From: a virus
Length of the DNA stretch: 64,000 nucleotides
Virus record (IMG/VR): IMGVR_UViG_3300042503_001836
Span: 1 to 64,000 of that record
Reading direction: 5' to 3' (one strand)
Each line of letters opens with the position of its first letter. The first letter of the stretch is position 1. The notes beneath the pieces are model-generated. The model was given only the letters and a program-made list of their open reading frames with translations, was not told where the DNA came from and made no database searches. Both the position numbers and the translations under genes were made by a program. Below are positions 195-57,304 of the stretch, in pieces.

Positions 195-312
195 GTTTCA
201 ATCCAACTCCTTGTTACGGGAGTATTTGTGTTTAGCTATTGTTTCAAGCCTGTCTATTAGTTCCTGTTCCTAAATGTTTCAATCCAACTCCTTGTTAAGG
301 GAGTATTTTAGC
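195..312 (-). CRISPR. Degenerate two-repeat mini-array (195-231 and 276-312) of the phage type I-C repeat
   Basis: GTTTCAATCCAACTCCTTGTTACGGGAGTATTT and GTTTCAATCCAACTCCTTGTTAAGGGAGTATTT compared with array consensus GTTTCAATCCAACTCCCTATTAAGGGAGTATTTATAC; 44-nt gap between them. Confidence 0.85.
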
Positions 313-456
313 TTTTGAGGGAAGTACCTTGAAGCTTTTGCCTCGTCTCCTTAACCCAGGTTGCAGCCCTGACTTCTTATTTTTCCCAGCGTTAGAAGTC
401 AAACGACAACAATCTAAAAATTGAAGTCTGACGCGCAGTGCTACAAGCACATATCT

Positions 457-485
457 AATATATCAAATATTTCTGATTGTGTCAA
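457..485 (-). promoter_or_regulatory. sigma70-type promoter pointing into the non-coding region 1-450
   Basis: Minus strand TTGACA-17 nt-TATATT. Confidence 0.7.
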
Positions 486-589
486 GCCTTTATTTTAAAA
501 TTCTCTAAAACAACAAGCTAACTAAAAATCTACCCTAAACCCCCCTAATTCTGCTAATCTTAAATAACTGATATGCAAGGACAATCATC

Positions 590-805
590 ATGGGCAGGAA
601 AAAACAAAACAAAACCACCTTCATAGTTCGCATGGATGCTGATAAACGTCGGCAACTAGAGGAACAGATCATCGAACTAGGGTACTACTACACTAGGGAT
701 GGTGTATTGCTCCCTAGCATTGGCAGATATTTAGAGGACGTAGTAGACGGTAAAATATTACACCATAAAAGAATTTTAGATTTAAGTATTGACAATTCAA
801 AATAA
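590..805 (+). CDS. Small DNA-binding protein, possibly ribbon-helix-helix
   Basis: 71 aa; basic N-terminus, then alternating beta pattern TTFIVRMD followed by a helix; AGGA RBS. Confidence 0.45.
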   Translation: MGRKKQNKTTFIVRMDADKRRQLEEQIIELGYYYTRDGVLLPSIGRYLEDVVDGKILHHKRILDLSIDNSK

Positions 806-823
806 CTGATATACAGTTATAAA
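789..823 (+). promoter_or_regulatory. Phage early-type promoter, copy 1
   Basis: TTGACA-17-TACAGT; 35 bp identical to 2611-2645. Confidence 0.75.
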
Positions 824-872
824 CATAGGAGACAGGGAAAAACAAAAAACCACTCACGCCCTGGTTAAGTTG

Positions 873-2066
873 ATGACTACAGCTAAATTACAACAACGTC
901 AAGCTACATTAATCAACTTAATCACTCGTGTAGGCGGTCGCCAAAACATCCAGAAATGGATGGATGAACTTCTGCAAATTGACGTAAAACTTGAAACAAA
1001 GGAAGAAAACAAGATGTTTAAAATCAATGCTACTGATTTACATATCTCTATTCAAAAAAAATTAGCCAAATTAATTGATGGTAAGCTGGTAAAAGGCGTT
1101 ATCACTACATCAGTTGATCCTGACTCTCTCAACTGGCACGAATTAGAAATTAATATCTATGGCTACATTGATACTGATGCTGACAGACTATACGAATGTG
1201 TGTCATGGGAAGAAGCAACTCTAATTGTGGATAGCTTAAAATTAGCTATTAAATCTAATTTTACCAGTCTAGATGACTGGCATAAATATCAAACAAGAGG
1301 TGCTTGGGGATTCTTTGGGAGCAGCCTAGATCAAGGCATTAGCTACTACATACTTGGACTAGATCGCAAATATTGCGGTCAAGTTTTCAAAGCTACTGGA
1401 CGTAATAAAGACGTTGCCACTTATGAACAGATGGACGGCTTTGGCTTTGCCGATTCTGTTGACAAGCACGTTTTCACAAAATGGGAATACAAACACTCAG
1501 ATGGTACTATCATCTGGGTTGCTGAAAATAGAAAAATTTACACTATTCCTACAGAACAGGAAGTAGTGGGGAGAATACAGTCTCTAATTTATGAACACTG
1601 CAAAAGAGAAAAAATGACATGGCAAGATTTTGTTAGTGACATTGAAAATCGAAAACAAAAAAATGCAGCATTTGATGCTGCTGAAGAAGCCGCTAGAAAG
1701 GCTGCTGAAGTAGCTATTCCTGCACCAGAATGGTATCAAAAAGAAATCTACTCCAAATCACTATCTCGCTTTTGGATAGGCGATGATTACTTATACTTCT
1801 TTTACTGGAACACTAGAGATGGCAGTGTTTGGGAAGAGTGCGATGATCGTACTCGCGGCTTAGATAACAGAACCAGAAATCGTAGGTCTTTAGGATCTGA
1901 CAAGGAAGTGGTATTAAACTACATCCATGCGCTACTTCAAAAGCGTGAAGAGTACAGTCAACGCAAGCAAGAGCGTGAGGAAGCTTATGAGGCTTATAAG
2001 AAGGCTCAAAAAGCCAAAGGTGGCATCATTAAGCCTTTAGAAAAATGGCTGCAAACTGTAGCCTAA
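873..2066 (+). CDS. Hypothetical protein
   Basis: ~397-aa open ORF downstream of a promoter; no recognised motif. Confidence 0.75.
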   Translation: MTTAKLQQRQATLINLITRVGGRQNIQKWMDELLQIDVKLETKEENKMFKINATDLHISIQKKLAKLIDGKLVKGVITTSVDPDSLNWHELEINIYGYIDTDADRLYECVSWEEATLIVDSLKLAIKSNFTSLDDWHKYQTRGAWGFFGSSLDQGISYYILGLDRKYCGQVFKATGRNKDVATYEQMDGFGFADSVDKHVFTKWEYKHSDGTIIWVAENRKIYTIPTEQEVVGRIQSLIYEHCKREKMTWQDFVSDIENRKQKNAAFDAAEEAARKAAEVAIPAPEWYQKEIYSKSLSRFWIGDDYLYFFYWNTRDGSVWEECDDRTRGLDNRTRNRRSLGSDKEVVLNYIHALLQKREEYSQRKQEREEAYEAYKKAQKAKGGIIKPLEKWLQTVA

Positions 2067-2123
2067 CCCACCTGATGAGTCCGGCTGACTACCGGACGAA
2101 ACTACCATCTTGGTAGTCGTGGG
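2067..2123 (+). ncRNA. Hammerhead ribozyme (type I) HH1
   Basis: CCCAC-CUGAUGA-GUCCGG(7-nt loop)CCGGAC-GAAA-CUACCA(ucu)UGGUAG-UC-GUGGG; predicted cut after C2118. Confidence 0.93.
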
Positions 2124-2153
2124 AAGTTTATAGTTATACCCACTAGGAGATAT

Positions 2154-6364: not shown

Positions 6365-6695
6365 TTTGTCTCCATAAATTTGCAAAATCTTTAACAAGAG
6401 CTTGACTATCAGGATTAACCTGATACATCTTTCTTGGTTGTCCTCTACCTTTGATTGGTTGCTGATAGCTAATAATTAACTTTTCAGCAAGCATAAACTT
6501 TAAAGCATTATTCAAAACGCAAGCTGATAGTTTTAAAGTAGGATACTGTTTCAAATCAGCTTGTATTTTAGCCTGGTAAGTGTCTCCTGACTGGAGAAGA
6601 AAGCATACCCACCAAACAGTTTGACACTGTGATAGATGGGTATAATCTGAAGATTTGTAGATAGTGCTAATCTTCATAAAAGTCTTCGGAGCCAA
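6348..6695 (-). CDS. pex: PadR-family winged-helix regulator, cyanobacterial Pex-like
   Basis: YP.LKLS..VL..ALKF, GRGQPRKMYQV and ANLW match the Pex pattern LSDTVLYSA.KFL...GRGRPRRMYQ...ARLW. Confidence 0.75.
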   Translation of the reverse strand: MAPKTFMKISTIYKSSDYTHLSQCQTVWWVCFLLQSGDTYQAKIQADLKQYPTLKLSACVLNNALKFMLAEKLIISYQQPIKGRGQPRKMYQVNPDSQALVKDFANLWRQINETV

Positions 6696-6921: not shown

Positions 6922-7166
6922 AGATCAAGTTCCTTATTCCAATAATGAAACCTCATCATCAGCTTAGTAGCTTGCATCAAAAAGTATTCTCGCAATCCTT
7001 TAAATGACAGTTCTATACACTCATCAGCAAACATAATAGAACCATCGTTAAACACCAGATACTCCATAATACAACAGCCACTAGAATCGTATTTATAGAT
7101 ATCTATCATACGTTCCTTGAGTTGTTTTACCCTACCATTAACTAAATACATCACACAGTGTTTCAA
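6900..7166 (-). CDS. Hypothetical protein starting in, or just after, a solitary CRISPR repeat
   Basis: TTG start inside the repeat, or ATG 8 nt after it. Confidence 0.55.
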   Translation of the reverse strand: MKHCVMYLVNGRVKQLKERMIDIYKYDSSGCCIMEYLVFNDGSIMFADECIELSFKGLREYFLMQATKLMMRFHYWNKELDLWLKKEL

Positions 7167-7196
7167 TCCAACTCCCTATTAAGGGAGTATTTATAC
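7160..7196 (-). CRISPR. Solitary perfect CRISPR repeat (array-1 type)
   Basis: 37/37 match to the array 1 repeat; no neighbouring repeat. Confidence 0.95.
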
Positions 7197-7351
7197 TTTC
7201 AGAACTCTAGGTCGAGTTCCCAGTTAAGCAAGTTTTCAAGCTTACCTGTATACTGTTTTACTTTTGTCATGTCTTTTTGCTTGACATTATTCTAAAATAA
7301 TAGTATAGTTATAAAACAATGTCAAGTAAAATAATAACATAAATTAATAGT

Positions 7352-9673
7352 ATGTCTGTATTATCTGGAACGCAGTTAGACCTATTGTCATGCCTAAACG
7401 TCAGCAACGGCGTTGCTAAAATAGACAACCAAGAACCAATAGCGGATTATATATGGTTTGTCAGTCAGGATGCAGACATCACACCTGAACTATATGATTA
7501 CTGTGAAAAATTATTTACCAGCAACTTACTTGTATTAGATTTAGAAACCTACGGAGCAGAAATGCCTGAAAATGGGGAGTATAAAAGAAAACAAACTAAC
7601 GCCCAGTCATATAAGAAAGGCAAAACATCAGGATTACAGGAATTAGCATTATCTCCTATTTATGGAGATATTAGATTACTCCAGTTAGCATCATTAAGTA
7701 GTGATAAAGTTTTAGTTGTGGACTTCAAAACCAAATGGGATAGACCACAGCTATCTATAAAATATAAGGAATTTATTGATTATTTAATTGAGAAAATGAG
7801 AGAGTTTACCAAGCGTAAAGGTGTATTCATTGGGCATAATATAGGATTTGATCTAGGTTTTCTAAGGGCTAAATATGGTATTAAAACATGGAAAGCTTAT
7901 GACACTATGATTATGTCTCAACTACTATCAGCAGGTATCCTTACGCATAGGCATGGGTTAAAAGATTGTTGTTATCGTTACTTGGGTATAGATGTAGACA
8001 AGACAGAGCAACTAGCAGATAATAGTTTGCCATTAAGGAACGCACAGATCAATTATGCAGCGTCTGATATCGTTAATACAGGTGAGTTGTTTGTCAGATT
8101 AAGACAGGAAATTAAACTAGCTGAACTAGAAGAAGTAACAGAGATTGAGGCAAAGTTTACCCCGGCATTAGTAGAGATTAATTATTGGGGGATGCCTGTG
8201 GATTTAGGTGAGCTAAATAGACAAATTAATTGGTATAACAGAAAACTAATGGAACTTGATCAAGAGTTCCAACAAATCCATCCTGGTTTAAATATCCGAT
8301 CTAGTCAGCAAATAGCGGGTATTATTGCGCTTTTAAATAAAAGGGATGCTGAACAGGATGATGAGATTGGGGAACAAGTAGATAGCATTGAGACAGATGT
8401 ATTTAATGCTATTCAAACTGTTAAAGCTAAAGGTAGTAGTAAATCCGATTTAGCACTACTCAATGATCACCGTGTAGTGCAGCTAGTTGTAGACTTTAGA
8501 ACAGTTTCAATCTATCTCAACTACTGCCAACAAGTGAAGCAAGAAATAGTCTGGATTGAGGGAGTACCGCGTGTAAGTGGAAGTATTAGACAGCTAACCC
8601 GTAAAGGTCAAGGAAGGACTTGTTCAGGGAATAAAAACGCACCTGTTAAGTGTCAAGGTGTTAATATCCAGAACCCTCCGTCTTTAAAGAGTATTAATGT
8701 GAGATTGAAAGCTTGCGGATGTCCTAAAGTTAGGGATATTTTTAGGGCAAAGCAAATAGAACTAATCCCAAAGACAGAACTGAGGCTCATAGCTCAACAT
8801 GAATCACACGCTTTAGTTTGGTTGATGGATTTTAGGATTGTAGATGTTGACTTACCTGCTGCACATTTAGCTATCGCAACTTACATGAGTGGTGAACAAG
8901 ATGTAGAAAAGGGTGTAGATCGCCATGCTATTACAATGAAATGTGTTTTTGACTCCGTAGATAGTTATAAGGAGCATAGACACCTATCAATTAAGGACAT
9001 CACAGCCATTAATAAGAAGGATGATCATAACTTATTTAAAAAGTTTACAAAGATTAGGTCTATGTGTAAGAACGTCGTCTATTCTGGGCTTAACTTTGGG
9101 TCTGCTCCTACACTGCAAACAACTATAAAAACTAATAGTAATGAAGAGGTAGCTTTGCCTATTTGCGAAGCAATGACAGAAGCTTTTCCTGTTATTCTGC
9201 CTAAAATAGCAGAACTTAGGGAAATCCTGTGGAAGAAGGCAAACGATAATAAAATTTGTATTGACGGTCATTGGTATGGTACTTTTCAAGATGACTATGG
9301 AACGTATTCTACACCGGGTTATAGACGACGTATTTATTCGTTCTGCAAGACAAACAAAGCAGATCAACACTATGTCCCTAAAGGAGATATTGCAAATTGC
9401 TGGCTTGCAAGTGAATCAAGTAGCGTCAAAGTGGGTATAGCTACTATATATCAGCAAGGAGTATTTACTGAAAAGTTTGATTTAAGATTATCTTCTATTT
9501 GTCATGATGAGGTTGTTTTATTTTGTCGAAAATACCAGGATATTGAAGTAGCAGCTTTAACTCAAGATTCAATGAGACAAGGTTTAGAACACTTTACGGG
9601 TAATGGTAAAATACCATATCCTGATATGATGAAAAATCCTAGAAAATTAATTAGTGCTAGTTGGGAACATTAA
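7352..9673 (+). CDS. polA: Family A DNA polymerase with 3'-5' exonuclease domain
   Basis: Exonuclease motifs DLET, GHNIGFDL, YAASD; NIQNPP; motif A VDVDLPAAHL; motif B R...KN..Y; motif C CHDEV. Confidence 0.85.
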   Translation: MSVLSGTQLDLLSCLNVSNGVAKIDNQEPIADYIWFVSQDADITPELYDYCEKLFTSNLLVLDLETYGAEMPENGEYKRKQTNAQSYKKGKTSGLQELALSPIYGDIRLLQLASLSSDKVLVVDFKTKWDRPQLSIKYKEFIDYLIEKMREFTKRKGVFIGHNIGFDLGFLRAKYGIKTWKAYDTMIMSQLLSAGILTHRHGLKDCCYRYLGIDVDKTEQLADNSLPLRNAQINYAASDIVNTGELFVRLRQEIKLAELEEVTEIEAKFTPALVEINYWGMPVDLGELNRQINWYNRKLMELDQEFQQIHPGLNIRSSQQIAGIIALLNKRDAEQDDEIGEQVDSIETDVFNAIQTVKAKGSSKSDLALLNDHRVVQLVVDFRTVSIYLNYCQQVKQEIVWIEGVPRVSGSIRQLTRKGQGRTCSGNKNAPVKCQGVNIQNPPSLKSINVRLKACGCPKVRDIFRAKQIELIPKTELRLIAQHESHALVWLMDFRIVDVDLPAAHLAIATYMSGEQDVEKGVDRHAITMKCVFDSVDSYKEHRHLSIKDITAINKKDDHNLFKKFTKIRSMCKNVVYSGLNFGSAPTLQTTIKTNSNEEVALPICEAMTEAFPVILPKIAELREILWKKANDNKICIDGHWYGTFQDDYGTYSTPGYRRRIYSFCKTNKADQHYVPKGDIANCWLASESSSVKVGIATIYQQGVFTEKFDLRLSSICHDEVVLFCRKYQDIEVAALTQDSMRQGLEHFTGNGKIPYPDMMKNPRKLISASWEH

Positions 9674-9745
9674 ACAAAAAATAACCCGCTACCTGTAGAG
9701 TTTTGGTAGTGGGTTTTTTTCTGGGTAAGCTATATTATTTAATGA

Positions 9746-10900
9746 TTATACCACTGCTTTTTCTTTTATCCAAGGTAACATTTTTAATTTTGCACCAGCA
9801 GCATTTTCATGTCCGCCACCGTCTAAACTACGTGCTAATTTGCTAACATCGAAATTGTCGTATTTTTGTCGAGATCGAAAGCTTAATTTATACTCATTTC
9901 CTAAATTAATGTAAGTACAAACAAAAGGTGATTCTGGATTTTCAGTATATAGAATTTCCATCACTTCGTTATAGTAAAAAGCATCATGAGAATCTAACGG
10001 AGCGGCTAAAAACCTATATCCCCAAGCATTAACCCAATGTGCATTATTAGCTAATAACTGTGATCGTTCTCTCTTAGGTGCTAACAACATTTGACCTAAA
10101 GTTTCAAAATGGTACATCAAATCTTTTTGAGAAAAACTAGATAATCTTGTCATTTCACTAATAATTTGATTCCTAGTTAGTCCATGCCGAATATGCCCAA
10201 AAGCTTCGTTTATTTCCTTAGATTTAGGTTGTAACCACTGCCATAAATCTCTATCCTGGACATATAATAAAAACGCTGGCACGGGTTCATCAGGAAAGAA
10301 ATATTCCCAAGTTAAAACTGCACCACATTTATAAATATCAAAGTTTAGATCACCATCTGAGAAGTATTTAAACAGTTGGTTAACACTGGTCACACTGCAA
10401 AACCTTTCAAGATAGTTATCAATATCCCGATTATTTAAAATATCAGTCCAGATATTTGTTAACTTAGCAAATGCTATAAAGTCTCTTAATATATGTACAT
10501 CCGTAGCAACTATTAACGATTCTTGATAGGATTCTAAGTAAGCTACTAACAAATGTTTAAGCGTGACTATAGTATGTTCATGTACTTTATCAACCAAAGT
10601 TTTATGATGATCAATCAGGATGATTTGGCAACCGCGATTACGCCACTGGTTTAGGACTTCTAACTCAAAACTAAAATCAACAATAATCAGTAAGTCACCA
10701 TCATTCACTATTGGTAAATCTGACTGATAGGTACAGCCAACTAGATCCGCAGTAGGGTATTTTCTTAAAGCTACCCAAGCGGCTGCGATACCATCTGGAC
10801 AATCTAACCCAGCGCGGACTCTCTTACCATCTCTATAAACATCAGGTTTGATTTGATGATAAAGAATTTTAATTTTACTATCTATTTTACGCCGTGTCAT
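9746..10900 (-). CDS. DHH-family phosphoesterase
   Basis: DCPDG, IVDFS, IDHH, DRDLW, SFRS, GGGHENAAG. Confidence 0.9.
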   Translation of the reverse strand: MTRRKIDSKIKILYHQIKPDVYRDGKRVRAGLDCPDGIAAAWVALRKYPTADLVGCTYQSDLPIVNDGDLLIIVDFSFELEVLNQWRNRGCQIILIDHHKTLVDKVHEHTIVTLKHLLVAYLESYQESLIVATDVHILRDFIAFAKLTNIWTDILNNRDIDNYLERFCSVTSVNQLFKYFSDGDLNFDIYKCGAVLTWEYFFPDEPVPAFLLYVQDRDLWQWLQPKSKEINEAFGHIRHGLTRNQIISEMTRLSSFSQKDLMYHFETLGQMLLAPKRERSQLLANNAHWVNAWGYRFLAAPLDSHDAFYYNEVMEILYTENPESPFVCTYINLGNEYKLSFRSRQKYDNFDVSKLARSLDGGGHENAAGAKLKMLPWIKEKAVV

Positions 10901-10959
10901 TGTTTTGTTTCATAAGTGTGTTATACTATTATAGTAAAATAAGTGTAATAGCAAATAAT

Positions 10960-11697
10960 ATGGATAAGATTGCTGTCCTCAATAAATGCACAGTAGAAGG
11001 TAATGTTGTCAAGTTGCCTGACATACAGTTAGAGCGTGACACATATTTAGAAGTCAAAAAATCCTTAGAACTTATTGGTGGTAAGTGGAAAGGTGGCAAG
11101 GTCTATGGTTTTGTGTTTCAACAAGATCCCACAGAACTATTAGAAGCAATAGCATCTGGTGATAGAAGAAACTTAAAAAAAGAGTTTCAATTCTTTGCTA
11201 CTCCATCTCCAATAGCAGATGAATTAGTAGTTTTAGCAGACATTCAGGAGCAACATTCAATATTAGAACCTAGCGCGGGTCAAGGCGCGATAATACAAGC
11301 AATCAGCCGATTTAATAGTAATATAACAAAAGTTGATTGCTTTGAATTAATGGATTTAAACAGACAAATACTGTCAAAAATACCAAAAGCTAATATATTA
11401 GGTGATGACTTTTTATTAGCTGATATTCAACAACAATATGATCGAATCATAGCTAACCCACCGTTTACTAAAAATCAGGATATTATTCACATAAGAAAAA
11501 TGTATGACTACTTAAAACCTGGTGGTAGGTTAGTTACTGTTTCCTCAAAACATTGGAGTTTTGCTGATGATAGTAAACCAAAAGAGTTCCGATCTTGGTT
11601 AGAGTCCTTAGATCATCAAGTAATCACCAATGAGCCTGGAGTTTTTAAAGAAAGCGGCACAAGTATTCCAACGCTAACTATCATTATTAATAAGTAA
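10960..11697 (+). CDS. SAM-dependent DNA N6-adenine methyltransferase
   Basis: FFATP, LEPSAGQG, IIANPPF, FKESGT. Confidence 0.85.
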   Translation: MDKIAVLNKCTVEGNVVKLPDIQLERDTYLEVKKSLELIGGKWKGGKVYGFVFQQDPTELLEAIASGDRRNLKKEFQFFATPSPIADELVVLADIQEQHSILEPSAGQGAIIQAISRFNSNITKVDCFELMDLNRQILSKIPKANILGDDFLLADIQQQYDRIIANPPFTKNQDIIHIRKMYDYLKPGGRLVTVSSKHWSFADDSKPKEFRSWLESLDHQVITNEPGVFKESGTSIPTLTIIINK

Positions 11698-11742
11698 GAA
11701 TAAATAGGGGATTAATTATTAATCTATTAGTCTCCTATAAAA

Positions 11743-12102
11743 CTAGCTGACTCTAATAAACCTTGGGTAATCACTACCATCAATTATTCCTAAAAACTCA
11801 TCTAATGGTCGCGCCCACATTTGTGGATAGTCAGGATCTACTCGCTGGTAAATTACATAATCACCTTCTAAGCAATCATCAGTATATACCTCATGCTCAT
11901 AGACTAAAGCAGTCTTATTGTTTTCGTAGGCTATGAGACATTCATAACCTGTTTCATGATGTTTAATACCGTCGGTTGTTATATCAAAATCATCTGAATT
12001 TGTTCCTGAAATTGTCCGTCCAGTGACAAATAATATTTTGTAATTATTACCTTTGAAGTGTTGCCATATCTGTCCGGGTTGTGGGGTTCTTTCTAGTTGC
12101 AT
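11743..12102 (-). CDS. DUF1653-like protein
   Basis: G.WQHFKGN.Y, HHET, VIYQ, MWARPLDEF, PRF. Confidence 0.8.
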   Translation of the reverse strand: MQLERTPQPGQIWQHFKGNNYKILFVTGRTISGTNSDDFDITTDGIKHHETGYECLIAYENNKTALVYEHEVYTDDCLEGDYVIYQRVDPDYPQMWARPLDEFLGIIDGSDYPRFIRVS

Positions 12103-12124
12103 AATATAGCCCTTGAAATTGTGA

Positions 12125-12524
12125 AACCCTAGAGATATATCCTTTCTCCAGGGTCGTGTACTTATTTACCAAAGGTAATTTCAGCGCGTTATTTGTTAAA
12201 TCTAACTCTTTTAAAAAAGAGTATTTATTTTTGTGAACTAACTTTTTGATTTCCGGTTGCCACTATTCATGCTTAGACCAGGCGATTTACCACTTATCCA
12301 CTTTGGCATAAAAGCCAAAGACGGGATTTGAACCCGTGTCTCCAAATGTCTTGATAGTGGACGTTGACGTTAGCCGCGCTGTTTTAACTTGAGTCTGTAA
12401 AATAGTTTAAATATTAAACTAAATCTAAAAAGCGTCTCTACCAGTTGGACTACCTGCGGGTAAGTCCGCAGGGTGGGATTTGAACCACACACTTTACTTT
12501 TGTTTTTAGACTCAACTTAAAACA
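12125..12524 (-). ncRNA. Structured RNA with two circularly permuted tRNA-like modules
   Basis: Modules 12432-12490 and 12281-12337 each read T-arm (GGTTCAAATCCC), 7-bp stem closed by a 6-nt loop, then D-arm (NTGGTA); long enclosing helices. Confidence 0.75.
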
Positions 12525-13256
12525 TTATACATCAAAAAGATAAGAAAAAACAGGTGTTGCTACATCTTTTTTCACAACTTCTATAGAGTTAGCTGTTTCC
12601 CTAGCAAACACAACTGCACGAGATAACAGATCAACTCGCTTGACTAATTCGTTTTGATGTGATCTTGTAATCGCCCCGGTAAATTTAACAGTTTTCCATT
12701 TACCTTCAGGAATATCTTCGGATACTTCTTTAACCTGTGCAGGGTGTTCCTTAGTAGCGTCATACAAAACAACAGGCTTAACTACTCGCTTTGTTTTAGT
12801 AGTGTACTTTGGTTCTGTGGAATAGCAGTCTAACTGACTGTTTTTAATCCATTCCTCAGAAATATCCTGTATGGGTAAAGACAATACAAATGTTTTAATA
12901 TCTGTAAGCTGTTTTTCAAGAAACAAGAGATAAGACACAGGAACAGCAGATAGAATGACACTATCACCAACAACGACATCAGCAATAGCTTGAGTATTCC
13001 CCCAATCCTGAGTAGCCGCGACATTAAACAATTCAGTTAACGCTTCTGAGAATTGTTTGATTAGATCCTCAGATTTAAGTTGTAAGTTGTTTTGCTCTGA
13101 TGGGTAGACAAAACCATCTTCCTGAGCAGGTTCATAAGTGCGAGAAATACCGGAAAATAGATCGGATTTTTGAGCTAATTGATAGATTTTAGTGGTGGCT
13201 TTCTTGGCATCAGCCTTCACGCTGTTAAGGATAGCAATTGCTTGATTAAGTTTCAT
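12525..13256 (-). CDS. Conserved helical hypothetical protein directly upstream of the tRNA-like RNA
   Basis: 243 aa; KLNQ.IA, GISRTYEP, VPVSYLLFLEKQL, YDATKEHPAQV, AREAN-like motifs. Confidence 0.85.
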   Translation of the reverse strand: MKLNQAIAILNSVKADAKKATTKIYQLAQKSDLFSGISRTYEPAQEDGFVYPSEQNNLQLKSEDLIKQFSEALTELFNVAATQDWGNTQAIADVVVGDSVILSAVPVSYLLFLEKQLTDIKTFVLSLPIQDISEEWIKNSQLDCYSTEPKYTTKTKRVVKPVVLYDATKEHPAQVKEVSEDIPEGKWKTVKFTGAITRSHQNELVKRVDLLSRAVVFARETANSIEVVKKDVATPVFSYLFDV

Positions 13257-13520
13257 AATTCAATGGAGTCTGTTGTTTCAATAGTATATCTTGTTTTGTG
13301 TAAAGTTGTTTCAATCCAAACGTAAAATAGCATTAATAAAAATATAAATACTTATTAATGTAATAAATACTCTTTCAGAATATTACAGCTTGTTTGGATG
13401 CCATAATATTTATCCCAAGAAATATCAGCATGAGTTCCTGTATCAATCCAGACCTTGATACAAAAAGATGATATAAACTCATGACTCCATCCATCATGAG
13501 TTAGGCTGTTAGATATAGAA

Positions 13521-13784
13521 CTAAAGCGTTTTGATAGTTGAGTTTGATTCATGTTGTGAGTTAAGATCCGATTTTAGTTTTACGTAGTCATTAAAGGGCT
13601 TGGTGAGCGAAGAATCCTTTAATAACAAGGCTTTGAAGTCTCTACTAGCGTGAGCGTTGGAGAGCGAAACTAAAGTAGCAATTTGCGGTACACCTACGTA
13701 GTAGTTACCTTGCTCATCCATTAAACCATCAATAACAAAGAAACCGAATGGGACTTTTTCTGTCTTAGCTGCTAAAATAGTCAT
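13521..13784 (-). CDS. Antirepressor-like N-terminal DNA-binding fragment, possibly truncated
   Basis: IDGLM..G.YYV.VPQIA...ASRDFKALL pattern; overlaps the 13355-13552 ORF in another frame. Confidence 0.45.
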   Translation of the reverse strand: MTILAAKTEKVPFGFFVIDGLMDEQGNYYVGVPQIATLVSLSNAHASRDFKALLLKDSSLTKPFNDYVKLKSDLNSQHESNSTIKTL

Positions 13785-13964
13785 AGTTGCCTACTTTGCT
13801 TAAATGGATTAGGTGACTCCCATCTGATAAAACATTTGAGGCGTGCTACCGTCTCATCTGTTTGATGGGTGAATATGATTTGATTATTGTAGCATTAAAA
13901 TATAAAATATGTGAGATGTTATAGAGTGTATAGCAATACAATAAACATTGATCAACAGAACACA

Positions 13965-14240
13965 ATGAAACAACGAGTAAAACAAATGGAAGATCACCAC
14001 GACACAGGCTTTATAGTTTTGTCCGCAGTTAGGTACGCTATGGGTAGACGTAGTTATGCTGTTGGATTGATTATTGATTGGGTACAACATTTTTGGGATA
14101 AACTTACGCCTAATGATAAGGAATGTATTGCTAGAGATGTTAAAAGATTTGTGGAAAGTGATTACTCAAAAGGCGATGATTGTGATCAACGTGATTGGGA
14201 GAATTTTAATATTTGGATTGCAAGTAAAATAAATACTTGA
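13965..14240 (+). CDS. Hypothetical phage protein
   Basis: SAVRYAMGRRSY...DW motif; ATG after an AACA-rich leader. Confidence 0.65.
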   Translation: MKQRVKQMEDHHDTGFIVLSAVRYAMGRRSYAVGLIIDWVQHFWDKLTPNDKECIARDVKRFVESDYSKGDDCDQRDWENFNIWIASKINT

Positions 14241-14276
14241 CATAGATAAAACAATTTGATATATCTAATCTAGATG

Positions 14277-14309
14277 AAATAATCCCTAATCTATATTAGG
14301 GATTGAAAG
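14277..14309 (+). repeat. Host-type (Nostocales I-D-like) CRISPR-repeat-like hairpin
   Basis: AAATAATCCCTAATCTATATTAGGGATTGAAAG resembles TAATCCCTATTAGGGATTGAAAC-type repeats, with an extended stem; TTGACA at 14237. Confidence 0.55.
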
Positions 14310-14364
14310 ACATTAAAGGTTAAAACAATGCGTAAAACCAAACAAAACAGCACTAACATTGTGT

Positions 14365-16574
14365 GTTTCAATCCAACTCCCTATTAAGGGAGTATTTATA
14401 CCCTTTTTTCTGATTCTCTTGCAATATTCCACATATGTTTCAATCCAACTCCCTATTAAGGGAGTATTTATACGCTAGATGGCAGTGGTGGTCGGATCTC
14501 CAAGCTAGTGTTTCAATCCAACTCCCTATTAAGGGAGTATTTATACTTCCAAATAATGTTATCAGGGCTATTTTTAGCGATAACTATTAACGTTTCAATC
14601 CAACTCCCTATTAAGGGAGTATTTATACCTTATATAAATTAGATGGAATGTTCAAAAACAGGTTTCAATCCAACTCCCTATTAAGGGAGTATTTATACGC
14701 CCCAAGTGACTGCCTATTATCATCCCAGAAGGTTTCAATCCAACTCCCTATTAAGGGAGTATTTATACTTTAATGGATCAAGGTTTTTGCCCGGCAATGA
14801 ACATTGTTTCAATCCAACTCACTATTAAGGGAGTATTTATACTTTAACATTGTTTTTCTGTTCCTATTTGATAAACTTGTTTCAATCCAACTCCCTATTA
14901 AGGGAGTATTTATACCAAAATTTACACAATCTGAAAGAAGTAATTATGTGTTTCAATCCAACTCCCTATTAAGGGAGTATTTATACCTCTTTAGGCAAGA
15001 TCGACACTCTAGTGCCATCGGTTTCAATCCAACTCCCTATTAAGGGAGTATTTATACGTCGCCAGAACTGGTAATACACCTTTCTAGTTTCAATCCAACT
15101 CCCTTAATAGGGAGTATTTATACTAATAGATTGATCCAAGAACTTCAGGATCTAATCCTTGTTTCAATCCAACTCCCTATTAAGGGAGTATTTATACTTT
15201 GACGCTGGCAGTGATGATTTTAGTCAATCTTTAGGTTTCAATCCAACTCCCTATTAAGGGAGTATTTATACGATAATGTTTTAATGCTTTACCCTTCTTA
15301 CCATTAGTTTCAATCCAACTCCCTATTAAGGGAGTATTTATACCCACTTGCAGAAAAAAGAGAGTAGCGATCCTCAGTTTCAATCCAACTCCCTATTAAG
15401 GGAGTATTTATACCACAAGACGCATTTAATCTGATGCTTGATTTACACGTTTCAATCCAACTCCCTATTAAGGGAGTATTTATACTTCTTCTGGTAATTC
15501 TTCTGGACGGATACTCTTAGTTTCAATCCAACTCCCTATTAAGGGAGTATTTATACACAAGGTGAAAGATAACTGGACGTATTACCAACTTACGTTTCAA
15601 TCCAACTCCCTATTAAGGGAGTATTTATACGTAAAACAAATTAAACAAGTATCACCAAGCACTAAGTTTCAATCCAACTCCCTATTAAGGGAGTATTTAT
15701 ACAAAGAATACAGGAAATACACATTGACCATATATTTGTTTCAATCCAACTCCCTATTAAGGGAGTATTTATACAAATGTAGTGACTGTGGTAAATCTTT
15801 CAATGTTTAAGGTTTCAATCCAACTCCCTATTAAGGGAGTATTTATACTCAGATTGCTTAACTGGTTCAGATTGTTTAACTGGTTCAGTTTCAATCCAAC
15901 TCCCTATTAAGGGAGTATTTATACTGTCAAAATTAATTGATAAACCTTTAATATGTGGGTTTCAATCCAACTCCCTATTAAGGGAGTATTTATACTTACA
16001 TCGTATAACCCGGTGTATAAAGTAGTAGTTTCAATCCAACTCCCTATTAAGGGAGTATTTATACCATTAGTTGTTAGTTTAGGAATTGGCATCGAATCAC
16101 AGTTTCAATCCAACTCCCTATTAAGGGAGTATTTATACCTAAAGGTCAAATGGCAGTACATACTCGATAAGGTTTCAATCCAACTCCCTATTAAGGGAGT
16201 ATTTATACTCTACCCTATCCCACCAATCAGCCCCGGTAACGTTAAGGTTTCAATCCAACTCCCTATTAAGGGAGTATTTATACCGAATTAATTGGCCTAG
16301 TGAGACCGCAACCAATACGTTTCAATCCAACTCCCTATTAAGGGAGTATTTATACGTGCAACTGGAGAAATCGGCGAGCGCTCACCTGGAAGTTTCAATC
16401 CAACTCCCTATTAAGGGAGTATTTATACTTTCACTTCTTCAATTCTTAAATTAGCTGTTGTTCGTTTCAATCCAACTCCCTATTAAGGGAGTATTTATAC
16501 GGAAGGGGTGAATTAACTCAACGTCTTAACCCATCCTGTTTCAATCCAACTCCCTATTAAGGGAGTATTTATAC
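14365..16574 (-). CRISPR. CRISPR array 1: 31 repeats (37 nt), 30 spacers
   Basis: Repeat on minus strand GTATAAATACTCCCTTAATAGGGAGTTGGATTGAAAC; period ~72 nt; leader on the cas7 side. Confidence 0.98.
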
Positions 16575-16800
16575 TGCTGCACTCCAGAGTCCTTACTATA
16601 TTTAGTTTTCAAGGTTCAGTTGCGCGGATGGTATTATAATAGTCCATTTCAGAAATTGTGTCAAGGGGCGAAATAGCTGAAACCTTTGCTGTATAAGGTG
16701 CGCGGGTACTTATAATAGTAAAATGGCTGAAATTCTTATATATAAAGAATTTCAGCCATTTTATTCATTACTTATATTTTTACACCCACCCATCCGCGCA
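16575..16800 (-). promoter_or_regulatory. CRISPR leader 1
   Basis: Homologous to 22110-22336 (CCGCG.AACTGAACCTTGAAAACTAAATAT, TTGACACAATT, GCTGAAATTCTT...TTTCAGC). Confidence 0.85.
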
Positions 16801-16802
16801 AT

Positions 16803-17663
16803 TTAGGTTAATTTTGTTAGACTTACTCCGTTGGGCAAATCATTACTAAGTATCACCTGATAATCGCTAAAACTGCGAGGTACAGCAACGGTAGACTTAA
16901 TTTCCAGTTTATCAAATAACTCATGAACAGGCGCACTGCCATACTTATTATCGTGACTAAAAATATACAGACCACGACACGCCATAAGACCACGACTAGC
17001 AGAACGATCAAACTCCCAAGATTTAACAAGTGCATCCCACAATAATTCTAGGTCGCGTTCCGTTACGTGGCTGGCTAAACTAGGATTATAAAAAACGTAA
17101 GAACGATATAAACCATAGGGAATAGTTTCTTTACGACCCATAGTTTTGTTGTCTTTGTTTTCTTGGGCTTCAGTGGACGCACAGCGAGTAATGCAAACAG
17201 ATTGAGGAAATATAGGATCAATGCTTCTAGCAAAGCTAAATTGTGACGCACCCCATACCTGTCCTGCTTGGTAGTCTCCAGTAGACATAACTGCACCAAA
17301 CATTCTTACATCATAGTAATTTTGGCGCATCCAATTATTAACAACGTCAACACCAGTTTTATCTTTTTTAGACTTCTTAGTTCCAGAAGCATCATAAGCC
17401 GCTTCTAAAGTATTGTTCAGAACCGATCCTGACTTAATAAAGATTCTGAATCTTTCTGGTTTTTGCTCATCAGAGGCAACCATTTGAATGTAGTTCCTAA
17501 CTTTACGTTTTAGACAAGCATCAGTTACCAAACCTTGATTAGTTTGAGGATCAATTCGTGGTTGATTACCAGCATCAGGATCACCGTTAGGATTACCGTC
17601 AAGACAATCAAATAATAGAATAGCGTCGTGTTTTTTGGTTGGGTCTAAATAAATCTGTGTCAT
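16803..17663 (-). CDS. cas7: Type I-C Cas7 (Csd2)
   Basis: GNPNGDPDAGNQPRID, TDACLKRKVRNY, DVRMFGAVM, TMGRK..IPYGLY. Confidence 0.95.
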   Translation of the reverse strand: MTQIYLDPTKKHDAILLFDCLDGNPNGDPDAGNQPRIDPQTNQGLVTDACLKRKVRNYIQMVASDEQKPERFRIFIKSGSVLNNTLEAAYDASGTKKSKKDKTGVDVVNNWMRQNYYDVRMFGAVMSTGDYQAGQVWGASQFSFARSIDPIFPQSVCITRCASTEAQENKDNKTMGRKETIPYGLYRSYVFYNPSLASHVTERDLELLWDALVKSWEFDRSASRGLMACRGLYIFSHDNKYGSAPVHELFDKLEIKSTVAVPRSFSDYQVILSNDLPNGVSLTKLT

Positions 17664-17681
17664 GATGTTTACCTTTTGTTA

Positions 17682-19337
17682 TTAGTCGTTTTCAGTTTCA
17701 GTAGTTTCTAATTCAGCTTCAGTTCTTTTAGCATAGAACTCACTTTTCATTTGCCACCAACCTTGAAAGAATAAAGCTTGAGACTTTGTATCAAGAATAT
17801 CTGGCAGACTAGTTATATCAAAATCCTTAAATTCTTCAGTTAATTTAGGTTTGATATAACCAACATTTTCTAAGTGATAACCCATGCAGTGACTACAGAT
17901 TTTAGCAAACACTTGGGAAGGTGTAGATGATAAAATTTTCAAGTTTTTCATCACTACAGTTTTATCCTCAGAAATCTTCTGTGATTTCCAATGTACAGTG
18001 TGAAATAAGAAAGATATTCTACCCAGTTTAAAGGCAGAATCTAAGGTTAATTGTCCAGTGGGATAACTCATGTTATTGCTTGCTAAGTACAGATATAAAC
18101 CTTGTGCTTTGACATAGCTAAATTGTCTTTCTGCACAGATTCTAGAAATAATCTTTTGGGCGTAACCATCCGATAAGGCAGATCCGAGTAGTGCAAATTT
18201 GGTAATTTCTCTAGCGATACGTGACTTGTAATTGTCCTTACCATCAGCAAAAGCACATTTCACTAACAACCAAATTGGACTAGCTTTAGTAGCGCAACTC
18301 AGTTGTATTTCTACAAATCTTTTTAGGGATGATTTGACCTGACCTAAAGTGGTTTCTGTCCAACTAGATAAAGATATTCTCCCAGCGTTACCAGTTAGGC
18401 AAGCTATGAAAAATAGACTTTCTTCCAGTTCCTCAACATTCAGATTTTGAGGTTTATTTGGCGTGGAAAATATAGTTTCTAAAGATGGGTTATCCCACAC
18501 TTCGGCATTTATACCTTCACTGGTTTCCTCACCCCAATAAACAAAAACCTGATTTTCTGTCTTGAACCTATTGTTAGGTGAATCAAGTAAAAAGTTAAGT
18601 GTCTTATGTGTTCTAATTGCGCTTCTAATACTCATAGAAGCATTAGCATTACCAGCTAATCCATAAGACTCAGTAACTTCTTTATCAAAACTTACTAAAG
18701 CTGCACCTGCTGACTGGGAATTAGGAACGCCTTTAATCTTTAGTGGAACTACAGTTTTTAAAACTAATGCCTGTTCTTCACCGGATATTAAACAAAGTCC
18801 TCGTGTTCCTTCATTAAGCTTCAAAAGGTCACTATTTGCCTTCTTAACCCACCATTCCTTAATAATAGGAATACTGGTTATTTGCTCACCATCTAGCAAA
18901 AAAACAAATACTGATTTAACCCAATCTTCTTTAACTTTAGGGTTAACCTCTTTTAGCTGCTTAAATATCTTAGAACTGTCAGTTGATGTGACATATTCAT
19001 AGACTTTCCTAACAGCTTCATGTTCAGTAGCATTAATACATTGCTGTAATAACTCTAAGTACAAAGGCTGTCTTTTTCGTCCACGATCACCAGCACCAAA
19101 TAAATATTCAGCACTATCATCTATTAAAAGAGGTTTTTCACCATTCCTTAACAGATCCGGTACTAAAAGTTTCTTACTTAATGATGGTTGTCCTTTACTT
19201 TTTGGTGTTTCTAAAGACGTTATACTACCACTACTTAAATCAATAGCATAGTTAACACCTTTAGACTCGTAACCGTAGGGAGATAGTAAATTTTGACTAT
19301 CTAAAAACTTGCCTAGTTTATCTAATTCGGACAGCAT
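17682..19337 (-). CDS. cas8c: Type I-C Cas8c (Csd1)
   Basis: Lies between cas5 and cas7; CLISG, KIKGV...GAALVSF..ESYG, L.GNAGRIS, C-terminal Cas11-like F.LGR...QALF..G. Confidence 0.88.
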   Translation of the reverse strand: MLSELDKLGKFLDSQNLLSPYGYESKGVNYAIDLSSGSITSLETPKSKGQPSLSKKLLVPDLLRNGEKPLLIDDSAEYLFGAGDRGRKRQPLYLELLQQCINATEHEAVRKVYEYVTSTDSSKIFKQLKEVNPKVKEDWVKSVFVFLLDGEQITSIPIIKEWWVKKANSDLLKLNEGTRGLCLISGEEQALVLKTVVPLKIKGVPNSQSAGAALVSFDKEVTESYGLAGNANASMSIRSAIRTHKTLNFLLDSPNNRFKTENQVFVYWGEETSEGINAEVWDNPSLETIFSTPNKPQNLNVEELEESLFFIACLTGNAGRISLSSWTETTLGQVKSSLKRFVEIQLSCATKASPIWLLVKCAFADGKDNYKSRIAREITKFALLGSALSDGYAQKIISRICAERQFSYVKAQGLYLYLASNNMSYPTGQLTLDSAFKLGRISFLFHTVHWKSQKISEDKTVVMKNLKILSSTPSQVFAKICSHCMGYHLENVGYIKPKLTEEFKDFDITSLPDILDTKSQALFFQGWWQMKSEFYAKRTEAELETTETEND

Positions 19338-19963: not shown

Positions 19964-20042
19964 ACAATAAACCTTTGCTCTCTCTAATTTTGTAAAATAA
20001 TGTTAGTCTTATTTTACGTTGTCTCCTTATCATAATGTACTA

Positions 20043-22097: not shown

Positions 22098-22109
22098 ATA
22101 CTTAGTATC

Positions 22110-22336
22110 AAGCGCGTGTGGTTGGGTGTGAAAATCTAGATAATGAATAAAATAGCTGAAATTCTTGATAGGTAAGAGTTTCAGCTATTTTGTTTTTGTA
22201 AGTACCCGCGCCTTAGTAATGGTAAGGGTTTCGGCTGTTTTTGCTGTTGACACAATTCCTGGAATGGGGTATGATTATCTCATCCGCGAAACTGAACCTT
22301 GAAAACTAAATATAATCAGGCTTTTAGAAAGCAACA
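22110..22336 (+). promoter_or_regulatory. CRISPR leader 2
   Basis: Homologous to leader 1; TTGACA...TATGAT promoter. Confidence 0.85.
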
Positions 22337-23888: not shown

Positions 23889-23952
23889 TGATTAAAACAA
23901 ATTAAAACTAATTTAAACACAAAATAAAACAAAAAAATATTTTAACCACCCC

Positions 23953-23981
23953 TTGACACACCTAAAATAATTTGATATATT
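23953..23981 (+). promoter_or_regulatory. Promoter of long non-coding region A
   Basis: TTGACA-17-TATATT. Confidence 0.75.
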
Positions 23982-55301: not shown

Positions 55302-55306
55302 ATGTT

Positions 55307-55531
55307 CTATGGTTGTGTTTGCTGTTCTAACGCTTGTTTCATAACCTGAAATACTTTCTTGATTCTGGAATAGCTTGCTGTTTCATAGCCAGAATCAATC
55401 CAAATGCGGACTCGTTTATAGCTAAAGCCTGTCTCACTTGCTAATTGTCTTTTAGACCATCCCAACTGCAAGCGCATCAATTCCAGTGTTTCATGCAACT
55501 TGTTAATGTCAACCTGTCTTAAGTCTAACAT
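55307..55531 (-). CDS. XRE-family HTH regulator
   Basis: R..LGWSKRQLASETGFSY..V..W. Confidence 0.7.
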   Translation of the reverse strand: MLDLRQVDINKLHETLELMRLQLGWSKRQLASETGFSYKRVRIWIDSGYETASYSRIKKVFQVMKQALEQQTQP

Positions 55532-55854
55532 AAAAAAAGTCCTAAAAAGTCCACTATCTAAAATATATCAGAAAACGTGCTTTCTTTATAAAAATAAATA
55601 AAACAGCACCATTACACTATAATTTCCTATCTGTCAATCAGTAATTTTTTGAAAAACTCTATTTTTGCACGATACTTCAAATCTTTATACAGTAATAGTT
55701 TTAATGCCAGACGGTAGGAATAAACAAAGGTATCTGCACTATAGTATACAGATATACAGCAATATAAAAAATACTTAAATAAATAGCTGAAACTATTGAT
55801 ATATAAAGCTTTTCACTTTTAATGTTTTTTAGTAAGTGATGTTATTAACTGTAG

Positions 55855-55918
55855 GGTGATCCAAAAGTTCTAAAAACGATAGCTTATATATTATGATTTT
55901 CTCAACTTTTGGATCACC
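55855..55918. repeat. GGTGATCCAA inverted repeat, copy B
   Basis: 15-bp perfect arms GGTGATCCAAAAGTT / AACTTTTGGATCACC. Confidence 0.85.
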
Positions 55919-56049
55919 TTAGCTTTTTTTGCTATTTTTCTCAGTAAATTATAAGTAATCCGTATTAAAAATAACTTTAGTAAAAAACATATTAAAAACT
56001 ATATTTTAACTCCTAGAATACTTATATAAAGCCCACTCTGTTATTACAA

Positions 56050-57115
56050 GTCGGCGCGGAAATTCCAATTAGCTAACTATAAACACTTAATTAGGTAATT
56101 TATAAAACAGTAAGCAGTTAGTATAGTAATTATGTACTAAAGTAAAAATTGACAGCACAAATGTTTGAGCATTTTTAGTTAAAAAAACTTTTTAATGCCC
56201 GGTTTTCTATTTAATTTTTTAAGCCGTAATAAACCCTATGGATAACTGACATCCTATCCACTAGATGTCAAGGGCTATAGCTGGCTGTTAACCTACAGCC
56301 AGAGTTACTTTAGTTTCTTCAAATTAATCAGGTTGCGAGCCGTCATTCTTTTTAGTCCCCTCAGATAAATCTGTTTTACCCACAGATGGGAGTCAAATTA
56401 CCTTTTAACCAATAGGCTTGTCTGTTTTTGTTTAGGATTCGCGGTCTTCAACATACTTCATCCAAGACGCTAAGTGTCGTTTAGCTGCGTCCTATTTACT
56501 TGATCAGCTAGGTTACTGATATGTGGGTGTTTTTACATCTTGCTCTGATGGTTTTTGCGCTTATACAGTCGCACTTTCGATACCCAATAGAATTTGCTAA
56601 CATCTACACCGCCGCACCTGGAGTCATTTATTTCTAAAAGTAGTTCCCATTGTCGTTTCAATCCAACTCCCTATTAAGAGAGTATTTATACATTCCCCTT
56701 GTCTAGTTAATACCTAATGTTCATGGAAATCGCGCTCAAATATGGATCTAGTTTTTTGGTTCAATCCCTTCAGTAAAGTCTCACTACCTTACTAAATTTT
56801 TGATATCCCCTCAAGTCCGCCCAATTATATTGTCCCCATTTCAGGGTATCGTCATGGCCAACGCAATCTGCACTACTTTTTTATTGATTCACTTTTAATC
56901 CTTACAGGATTTAGGTCTCAACTAGAATCCGCCACGCGCACGCATACGGACTAGAAGCAATTTCCAATTAAAAACTAAATGAGAGTCTTTAATTTTCAAG
57001 CCGGGTAATGACTTCACCGACTCATCTTGCGTTCCTTACTGGTCTAGGGCTTTTATAATAAACGCTGAGGTGTGTTACAACGCTCGATTGTTTCGCCTAT
57101 CAGATTTATTCGATT
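56050..57115 (-). ncRNA. Putative long non-coding RNA B (3' end uncertain)
   Basis: Promoter at 57122-57150 followed by ~1 kb with no ORF in the track; contains an embedded CRISPR repeat. Confidence 0.5.
56655..56691 (-). CRISPR. Solitary CRISPR repeat inside region B
   Basis: 36/37 match to the array 1 repeat; the single change gives a U-G pair on the minus strand. Confidence 0.93.
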
Positions 57116-57121
57116 AAATAT

Positions 57122-57150
57122 AATATAACACGGGATAAAATAAATGTCAA
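57122..57150 (-). promoter_or_regulatory. Promoter of long non-coding region B
   Basis: Minus strand TTGACA-17-TATATT. Confidence 0.75.
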
Positions 57151-57267
57151 CCCCATATAAAATAAAAAAACCTAGTAATTTTGTACTAGGTTTGAGTTCT
57201 TATTACTTAGAATTAATTAAAACTAGGGGCTTTTCTGTTGCGGTTTCTGATATCTTAGCTGGTTTAT

Positions 57268-57304
57268 GTTTCAATCCAACTCCCTATCAAGGGAGTATTT
57301 ATAC
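57268..57304 (-). CRISPR. Solitary perfect CRISPR repeat (array-2 type)
   Basis: 37/37 match to the array 2 repeat; lies in the 3' region after ORF 57354-57623, before a terminator. Confidence 0.95.

Follow-up and report, generated by a model that had tools for sequence, protein, structure and literature searches.

Solitary copies of a CRISPR repeat are dispersed through a stretch of viral DNA that also encodes the matching type I-C system, and each is read in the direction of its flanking genes or of a near-consensus promoter. The stretch, hereafter the window, is the left 64 kb (positions 1 to 64,000) of the IMG/VR virus record IMGVR_UViG_3300042503_001836, a linear record of 118,553 bp with 36% G+C and an estimated completeness of 93%. 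Tentatively, and somewhat short of an even chance, we take these units to be selected RNA elements recognised by Cas5 that split or tag the phage's transcripts, with recombination junctions arising as a by-product. Possible, though doubtful, is a more specific version in which the phage's own repeat would serve as a dispersed cis-acting 'Cas5 box', at which the I-C endoribonuclease and Cascade process mRNAs and an abundant non-coding RNA, and which would act as a crossover point too.

The 37-nt repeat has the form GTATAAATACTCCCTT[A/G]ATAGGGAGTTGGATTGAAAC. The window contains 55 matches to it at three mismatches or fewer, with none expected, and the 9-mer GATTGAAAC occurs 63 times against 0.84 expected. 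Repeats of type I-C consist of a hairpin followed by an 11-nt 3′ handle, canonically (U)GGAUUGAAAC; every strong unit found here has a 5–6 bp stem followed by the terminal TTGGATTGAAAC. A covariance model was built from 28 distinct unit variants, and the bit scores and E values of the copies are taken from it. Outside the arrays, the model returned eight significant solitary copies, scoring 44–63 bits, and a decayed ninth. A first, sequence-only reading of the window had listed the eight (its starts at 26801 and 26846 lie within the copies at 26799 and 26844); the ninth was unlisted and was found by the covariance model. The observation is thus confirmed, and it is stronger than first put, given this extra copy, the occurrence of the units in relatives and the covariation in their stems.

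On the minus strand, a degenerate copy at 276–312 (5 mismatches, 55.6 bits) lies ∼140 nt downstream of a promoter at 485–457 and is followed after 44 nt by a second at 195–231 (6 mismatches, 53.4 bits). The copy at 7160–7196 is perfect (0 mismatches, 63.3 bits) and stands in the leader of the minus operon 7166–4564. The decayed ninth copy, at 12195–12230 (28 bits, E 1e-4), is situated between two minus-strand genes and has the stem ACTCTT/AAGAGT. Downstream of the promoter at 57150–57122, the copy at 56655–56691 has one mismatch and a G-U wobble in its stem; it is separated by 576 nt from the copy at 57268–57304, which is identical to the array-2 variant and lies in the 3′ region of the open reading frame (ORF) 57354–57623 (−). 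On the plus strand, a decayed copy at 25387–25422 (44.5 bits, E 2.5e-9) occupies the start of an operon, a copy at 26799–26834 (46.9 bits) overlaps the stop of gene 26479–26799, and another at 26844–26880 (5 mismatches, 54.3 bits) follows 9 nt later. All window copies are intergenic on a crude gene map and confined to the first 57 kb. No solitary copy was found in 63901–118553, where the only model match scored 15.5 bits (E 0.25) and nothing matched at ten mismatches or fewer. Two handle-only remnants that the first reading had added are present but weak: the 12-nt TTGGATTGAAAC at 13308–13319 (−; model match 13308–13349, 16.8 bits, E 0.13) and an extra 10-nt handle, GGATTGAAAC, at 26893–26902 (+; model match 26884–26902, 15.2 bits, E 0.36), 4 nt ahead of an ATG. 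A further 9-mer at 27815 gave a model E of 0.21, and one at 8504, antisense within the polymerase gene, is at chance level.

The solitary copies match the phage's own repeat, as had been proposed, and Pfam assigned a type I-C set of effector genes: cas7 (16803–17663, −; Cas_Cas7, E 1.6e-87), cas8c/csd1 (17682–19337, −; Cas_Csd1, E 9.4e-61), cas5d/cas5c, encoding the presumed endoribonuclease of the CRISPR RNA precursor (pre-crRNA) (19322–19963, −; Cas_Cas5d, E 2.8e-26), and cas3, encoding an HD nuclease and helicase (20019–22097, +; Cas3-like_C_2, E 1.6e-20, with DEAD and Cas3_HD). The PDB relatives of the phage Cas5 are annotated as pre-crRNA processing endonucleases or as Cas5 (3vzi, E 3.6e-32; 8g9t, E 8.8e-31; 8dex, E 5.1e-28), and it is clearly related to the solved I-C pre-crRNA endonucleases. 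The cas genes are bordered by array 1 (14365–16574, −; 31 repeats, loop TTAATA) and array 2 (22337–23888, +; 22 repeats, loop TTGATA), each read outward from them. The repeats of the two arrays are one loop base apart, and the spacers are mostly 31–45 nt long, with one of 29 and one of 20.

For comparison we used relatives comprising one IMG/VR contig (L010) and 21 metagenome stretches (L030–L050), which are 68–99% identical to parts of the window. Of 21 IMG/VR stretches bearing a 16-mer, only L010 contained the true repeat, and IMG/VR single-protein scans with the polymerase and Cas8c yielded no relatives. When these relatives are included, the units are in sense orientation at all eight independent sites that lie between co-directional genes (one-sided binomial, 0.004). 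The rule of sense orientation put forward by the first reading therefore holds both at these sites and at every window locus.

The window units fall into three classes of placement. The first comprises units in leaders downstream of strong promoters (276/195, 7160, 25387 and 56655), and each of the promoter-like sequences matches at 11 of 12 positions. TTGACA-17-TATATT at 457–485 (−) reads through 276 and 195 and is the only guide to their orientation, no downstream gene lying within the contig; TTGACA-17-TATTAT at 7297–7325 (−) is upstream of the 7160 unit; TTGACA-17-TAAAAT at 25354–25382 (+) ends 5 nt ahead of the 25387 unit; and TTGACA-17-TATATT at 57122–57150 (−), which is TG extended, is upstream of the 56655 unit. 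The second class, between cistrons, comprises 12195 and 26799/26844, which are flanked by co-directional genes. In the third, after a gene and ahead of a terminator, the 57268 unit trails the 89-codon ORF 57354–57623 (−), which has its own promoter at 57764–57736, and a terminator-like hairpin (57168–57193, −) lies 75 nt downstream. The presence of an ATG soon after the handle was also considered as a rule and was rejected (8/32 against a null of 0.19, P 0.25).

The divergence of the units is markedly uneven along their length. In the 20 variants falling outside the scan pattern, divergence from the consensus was 41% at nucleotides 1–4, 3.8% at nucleotides 5–8, 8.3% in the 5′ stem arm, 32.5% in the loop, 15% in the 3′ stem arm and only 2.3% in the 11-nt handle. 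Across the 28 distinct variants, 91.7% of the stem cells are paired and three of the six pairs have changes on both sides (five cells), although the closing pair is open in ten variants. The covariation score was reached by none of 500 shuffles, and slid controls paired far less. Compensated stems are seen at L038:583 (CTCTC/GAGAG), L046:4936 (CTCAC/GTGAG), L038:4322 and window 12195, and in the 26799 copy a C to U change re-forms the pair in which the common AGGAGT variant supplies the A. Preservation of the stems by wobble and compensatory changes, noted in the first reading for several copies, is thus borne out.

I-C Cas5 is reported to recognise the hairpin together with the handle. The uneven divergence fits constraint on these two parts, and a conservation pattern of this kind argues for recognition of hairpin and handle rather than for a guide function. 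Processing of solitary I-C units by Cas5c has been demonstrated in bacteria (bioRxiv 10.1101/2024.12.27.630466).

Several units are shared with relatives. L033 and L048 carry perfect versions of the 7160 unit, the 26799 unit is also present in L043 and L040, and the 276 variant is common to L030 and L047, both of which have one additional unit upstream. At the 25387 site, L035 and L042 have a repeat with one mismatch, and L040 has two repeats with two mismatches each, behind the same promoter and a different 74-nt leader; the repeat is thereby kept in four haplotypes with differing leader contexts. A repeat directly adjoins the leader of the 57150 promoter in L010 and L038. In addition, relatives have units where the window has none (L032, L038:4236, L050, L031, L044, L046 and L037). 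Of the two properties that the first reading proposed to check in relatives, orientation was consistent, whereas position was only partly conserved. An apparent case of a unit better kept than its flank, at 276, was dropped, the low BLAST identity being due to a 49-nt insertion in an otherwise near-identical local flank.

Several units are followed by one or two tandem copies of the repeat's final 10 nt (GGATTGAAAC), at window 26893–26902, L032:21–40, L037:2666–2675 and 6453–6462, L038:4359–4368, L046 past 4972, and at 22590 in an RNA contig from metatranscriptome run X1. This stretch is close to the 5′ handle of mature crRNA.

The scattered CRISPR repeats mark mosaic junctions between relatives. 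Using all BLAST segments of at least 100 nt, ten of 89 distinct breakpoints were no more than 5 nt from the edge of a unit, either in the window or in the relative, compared with ∼0.95 expected from the share of sequence near unit edges, an approximately ten-fold excess. A stricter count, confined to window edges and to segments of 150 nt or more, gave three of 76 against 0.24 expected. The junctions are mostly without units, about one breakpoint in nine involving one. In three cases the correspondence is exact. A 595-nt segment at 26835–27429, absent from L043, begins exactly after the 26799 unit (the break is between 26834 and 26835), with 94–98% identity between window and L043 on either side of that unit; the segment supplies the second unit (26844), the extra handle and small ORFs. 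A 399-nt segment at 56692–57090 (−) sits exactly between leader and repeat and is missing from L010 and L038. In L032, a repeat abuts the equivalent of position 54202, inside the window's 534-codon ORF. Crossovers within the identical 37 bp would yield such a pattern without any special enzyme; an integrase acting at the repeat borders could also do so, as an alternative to plain crossover.

This enrichment fits the alternative that the first reading itself had offered, ectopic spread of the repeat followed by domestication. It is also what would be expected of neutral debris, that is, of array fragments scattered by illegitimate or homologous recombination and held close to the array sequence by gene conversion, with junctions as their only effect and no function as RNA. 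The coincidence of unit edges with indel and homology breakpoints, the differences in position among close relatives and the decay of several copies (25387 and 12195) are all consistent with this, as is the finding of the 5′ flank ACATATATAC ahead of units at two loci, L047:302 and L037:6463, as though a segment had been transferred. Most window units also share the direction of the nearer array, but 56655 and 57268 point against it, and neutral scatter does not account for sense orientation at eight of eight informative sites. Moreover, decay should be even, yet it is 2.3% in the handle against 41% at the 5′ end and 33% in the loop. Gene conversion cannot explain the compensatory stem changes, because these occur in decayed, non-consensus copies. 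We regard neutral debris as an unlikely explanation, though the strongest of those that compete with Cas5-recognised elements.

In relatives, one unit forms part of an abundant transcript. Four freshwater metatranscriptome runs (X1–X4), from two studies, were mapped as assembled contigs to 7050–27049; parts of this interval that are uncovered carry no information. RNA depth was 1–8 over the cas genes and 20–460 over the non-coding region 23725–25058, downstream of a promoter at 23953–23981. In three of the four runs (X1, X2 and X4), contigs of the abundant RNA hold a repeat between the equivalents of 24676 and 24713/24763, and the joints around that repeat connect 15305/15340 and 16026/16061 to 24676–24763. 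The unit is that of L035:2366 and L040:2062, and it has the same direction as the promoter. In a contig from X3, homology to the window runs as far as 7153 and is lost exactly at the 3′ edge of the 7160 unit. The stretch 23953–25060 (+) is non-coding, stands behind the near-consensus promoter and may be an abundant phage non-coding RNA; one contig begins at 24017, right past the adapter. Rfam matched nothing in it, and its folding gave no signal (z 0.65).

If the units are Cas5-recognised elements, Cas5 would bind the hairpin of a unit and cut at its 3′ base. The upstream piece of RNA would then end in a Cas5-bound hairpin, and the downstream piece would carry the 11-nt handle at its start, a possible platform for the assembly of Cas7 and Cas8c. 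Phage transcripts would in this way be split, capped or tagged in a Cas-dependent manner, without guiding to DNA targets. The presence and orientation of the units, their uneven conservation and compensatory changes, the transcription of one of them in relatives and the enrichment at junctions are observed; cutting by Cas5, loading of Cascade and an influence on expression are inferences. At the DNA level, the identical 37-bp units would act as crossover points, at whose edges co-infecting relatives could exchange gene cassettes. The first reading had likewise cast Cas5d/Cascade as a post-transcriptional regulator of the phage's genes, an interpretation that is partly supported: the phage's own system, the matching repeat and the sense orientation agree with this, whereas the PAM-flanked targets that such guides might have (PAM, protospacer-adjacent motif) are absent from the phage genome. 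The ribozymes to which it had drawn a regulatory parallel were not recovered either, there being no Rfam match in the window.

Several observations weigh against a selected RNA function. Positions vary among close relatives: the relative L048 has no 195/276 locus, the segment missing from L043 includes the 26844 unit, and one RNA contig is without the 7160 unit. Three relatives (L039, L034 and L049) belong to a haplotype with no cas genes between head-to-head arrays, yet units are retained on its contig (L040). The variant set was found by similarity to the consensus and is biased accordingly; the variable first four bases could be junction scars rather than a sign of relaxed selection, and the identity of the 7160 and 57268 copies to array repeats could reflect gene conversion or recent origin, not selection. 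The gene calls used for orientation were crude, being made by a greedy choice of longest ORFs. The RNA contigs resolve neither transcript starts, ends nor strand, and their passage across a unit implies uncut molecules, be they some of the transcripts or contaminating DNA.

In the haplotype just mentioned (L039:3524–3630, L034 and L049), a minus and a plus array stand head to head, 33 nt apart, with neither leaders nor cas genes at that place. The explanation is either a haplotype that lacks cas genes or an assembly join that recurs. A 42-nt spacer of L039 matches window 1639–1680, inside gene 870–2066, at 42 of 42 positions, and another spacer matches the non-coding RNA region at L043:6876–6911 and L035:2859–2894 at 35 of 36. 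The two protospacers are flanked by GTG and GTC, not TTC. Judged by these matches, members of the group seem to target one another.

Such conflict bears on the idea that the units are RNA anti-CRISPR (Racr)-like decoys, which, expressed from strong promoters, would soak up the Cas5 and Cas7 of a rival I-C system belonging to a co-infecting relative or to a host. Viral solitary units downstream of promoters act in this way, and the Racr study includes an I-C example that follows a gene in one transcript (PMC10651486). The matching spacers of relatives, the retention of units in the cas-less haplotype and the nature of the neighbouring genes, which are small ORFans (none of seven unit-adjacent small ORFs has a PHROG family), would all suit decoys. 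As in Racr elements, the solitary units lie in intergenic regions of a mobile element; mimicry of a host repeat by an element without its own cas genes does not apply, as this phage owns I-C genes, and its own Cascade, sharing the repeat, would be inhibited too. The repeat had no match in 185,579 species-representative genomes, so that no known host system is mimicked, and several units are embedded in mRNAs rather than forming small RNA genes. A decoy role is accordingly quite unlikely in our estimation; one directed at sibling phages could still be envisaged because the relatives' arrays hold spacers against the group.

Still less probable is that the units are crRNA-like regulatory RNAs (crlRNAs) of the CreR/CreA type, in which the sequence after the unit would guide Cascade to repress a phage or host promoter. 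The 276/195 pair resembles a mini-array with a 44-nt spacer, and the 57268 unit is followed by ∼75 nt and then a terminator. Solitary I-C units are known to act as such guides in Neisseria (bioRxiv 10.1101/2024.12.27.630466). Using a criterion modelled on that preprint's description, at least 12 of 14 paired positions next to a TTC/TTA PAM, none of 12 pseudo-spacers had a match in the 118.5-kb genome, compared with three matches for 51 array spacers; these PAMs were assumed, and the two protospacers found have GTG and GTC flanks. The partial PAM-flanked matches that the first reading had proposed to look for in the 3′ flanks are therefore absent from the phage genome. A looser test (TTC plus 12 nt, at most two mismatches) gave three matches for ten pseudo-spacers and 14 for the 51 array spacers, which is background level. 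Among the matches listed, self-matches of spacers and pseudo-spacers in the genome are short and at chance level, except that the 276 'spacer' resembles the sequence following 195. In orthologous units the downstream sequence was no better kept than its surroundings and was truncated in L038, and a consistent 3′ hairpin 35–40 nt after the handle was not found.

Finally, it is just as improbable that the units are proto-arrays, seeds or remnants of small arrays that gain and lose spacers through Cas1–Cas2 acting in trans: the promoter and leader at 57150 that abut a repeat in L010 and L038 resemble an array start, one-spacer mini-arrays occur in L031 (with a 34-nt gap), L038, L046 and L030, insertions fall exactly at repeat borders and arrays differ between relatives of a phage without Cas1 or Cas4, but the 'spacer' lengths are odd (9, 24, 44–51, 92 and 576 nt), some 'spacers' copy neighbouring sequence and not foreign DNA, and no integrase is known in the 93%-complete record.

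Cas1 and Cas4 profiles had no match across the whole record, and the arrays are nevertheless long. In some array repeats (window 15087–15123, L036:55–313 and L043:7662–7846) the loop is inverted (TATTAA, not TTAATA) within an unaltered stem, as if the segment between the two arms had been flipped. Two array-2 spacers (window 22517–22553 and 23689–23708) contain GCGATCGC, which we take to be the palindrome that cyanobacterial genomes contain in very many copies, a hint that these spacers may come from a host. No genome matched a 24-nt piece taken from a spacer bearing GCGATCGC, and the array region matched none of the GenBank phages.

The only GenBank phage to match the record is Aphanizomenon phage vB_AphaS-CL131, over a short stretch at 79%; the record is that of a CL131-like cyanophage, though this match is distant. 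The locus reported for CL131 is of type V-U2 and not I-C (PMC6293099). Pfam identified phage genes for a clamp loader, polymerase exonuclease, methylases, dUTPase, ThyX, thymidylate kinase and a serine recombinase. Beyond the window, in the right half of the genome, a single ORF of 5050 codons occupies genome positions 69322–84474 (−).

The window contains further non-coding stretches. At gathering scores, Rfam had no match in the window, and no tRNAs were found; at E of 1 or below, only weak miRNA-like or short matches were seen in 55400–57400, 23850–25450 and 12050–14400. The ∼1.8-kb gap 55532–57350 (−) has no convincing ORF and includes two units, a promoter, a terminator and the 399-nt insert; it matched no Rfam family, and the fold z of insert plus leader was −1.16. 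This region and the one at 23953–25060 have no mutual similarity beyond the repeats. An 82-nt long-hairpin element occurs twice with 97.6% identity, at window 25185–25266 and genome 107411–107492, and a similar GGTGATCCAAAG...CTTTGGATCACC hairpin is present at window 55851–55921; Rfam gave only weak miRNA-like matches. The intergenic stretch 12260–12500 (−) has two GGTTCAAATCC motifs like tRNA T-arms, where ARAGORN found no tRNA and Rfam only an 18-nt match to a tmRNA end. Just beyond array 1, 37 nt after the plus-strand gene 13911–14240, a different repeat-like hairpin, AATCCCTAAT/ATTAGGGATT with the ending GGATTGAAAG, occupies 14277–14309 (+). It matches Rfam CRISPR-DR25 weakly (22.5 bits, E 0.24); it could mimic a different repeat family, or be no more than a terminator.

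The units can be compared with several known systems. Engineered Csy4/Cas6 sites consist of a repeat hairpin placed in a 5′ untranslated region (UTR), between cistrons or in a 3′ UTR, where the endoribonuclease splits the transcript. Such insulators are synthetic, and no natural phage version was found in our literature searches. In the promoter-early stem-loop (PeSL) cassettes of T4-type phages reportedly described by Arbiol et al. in 2010, short regulatory repeats border small accessory genes and are crossover points by which modules are shuffled; in the present case it is the phage's own CRISPR repeat that recurs, and it is involved in only ∼1/9 of breakpoints. The CreTA/CreR archaeal mini-arrays are related to crlRNAs. 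Medvedeva et al. (2019) and Al-Shayeb et al. (2020) are said to have described phage-borne CRISPR-Cas and virus mini-arrays in conflict between viruses.

For phage-borne CRISPR-Cas in such conflict, as in a review of phage ICP1 (PMC9040626), the likeness lies in effectors without adaptation genes and in spacers matching relatives; dispersed single repeats in mRNAs or leaders do not feature in the descriptions examined. Racr elements (Camara-Wilpert et al. 2023, PMC10651486) are similar in being single intergenic viral repeat mimics, with the hairpin kept, after a promoter or gene. They are described as unaccompanied by cas genes and as matching a host system, whereas this phage has cognate I-C genes, two arrays and about ten units. 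The I-C crlRNAs (bioRxiv 10.1101/2024.12.27.630466) share the hairpin and 11-nt handle and are cut by Cas5c, some having two degenerate repeats. They differ in that a spacer-like part pairs over ∼16 bp with a nearby promoter, next to a PAM, and in that a 3′ hairpin is present; neither was found here. They are also chromosomal, with one per cas locus, whereas the units described here are many and lie in a phage. Our literature searches, which did not cover supplementary IMG/VR lists of solitary units, found no phage using its own repeat inside its own mRNAs.

Known viral solitary units are decoys against host CRISPR, and bacterial ones are promoter-repressing guides. What differs here is that the virus owns the matching Cas proteins and has about ten units within its own transcripts. 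Should Cas5 cut these units, this would be a natural use of a CRISPR nuclease for the virus's own expression, the counterpart of the engineered Csy4 insulators, and the explanation, if true, would amount to a Cas-dependent post-transcriptional regulon in a cyanophage group. Independently of whether Cas5 cuts them, the units provide a concrete mechanism for the exchange of modules in an uncultured group of cyanophages.

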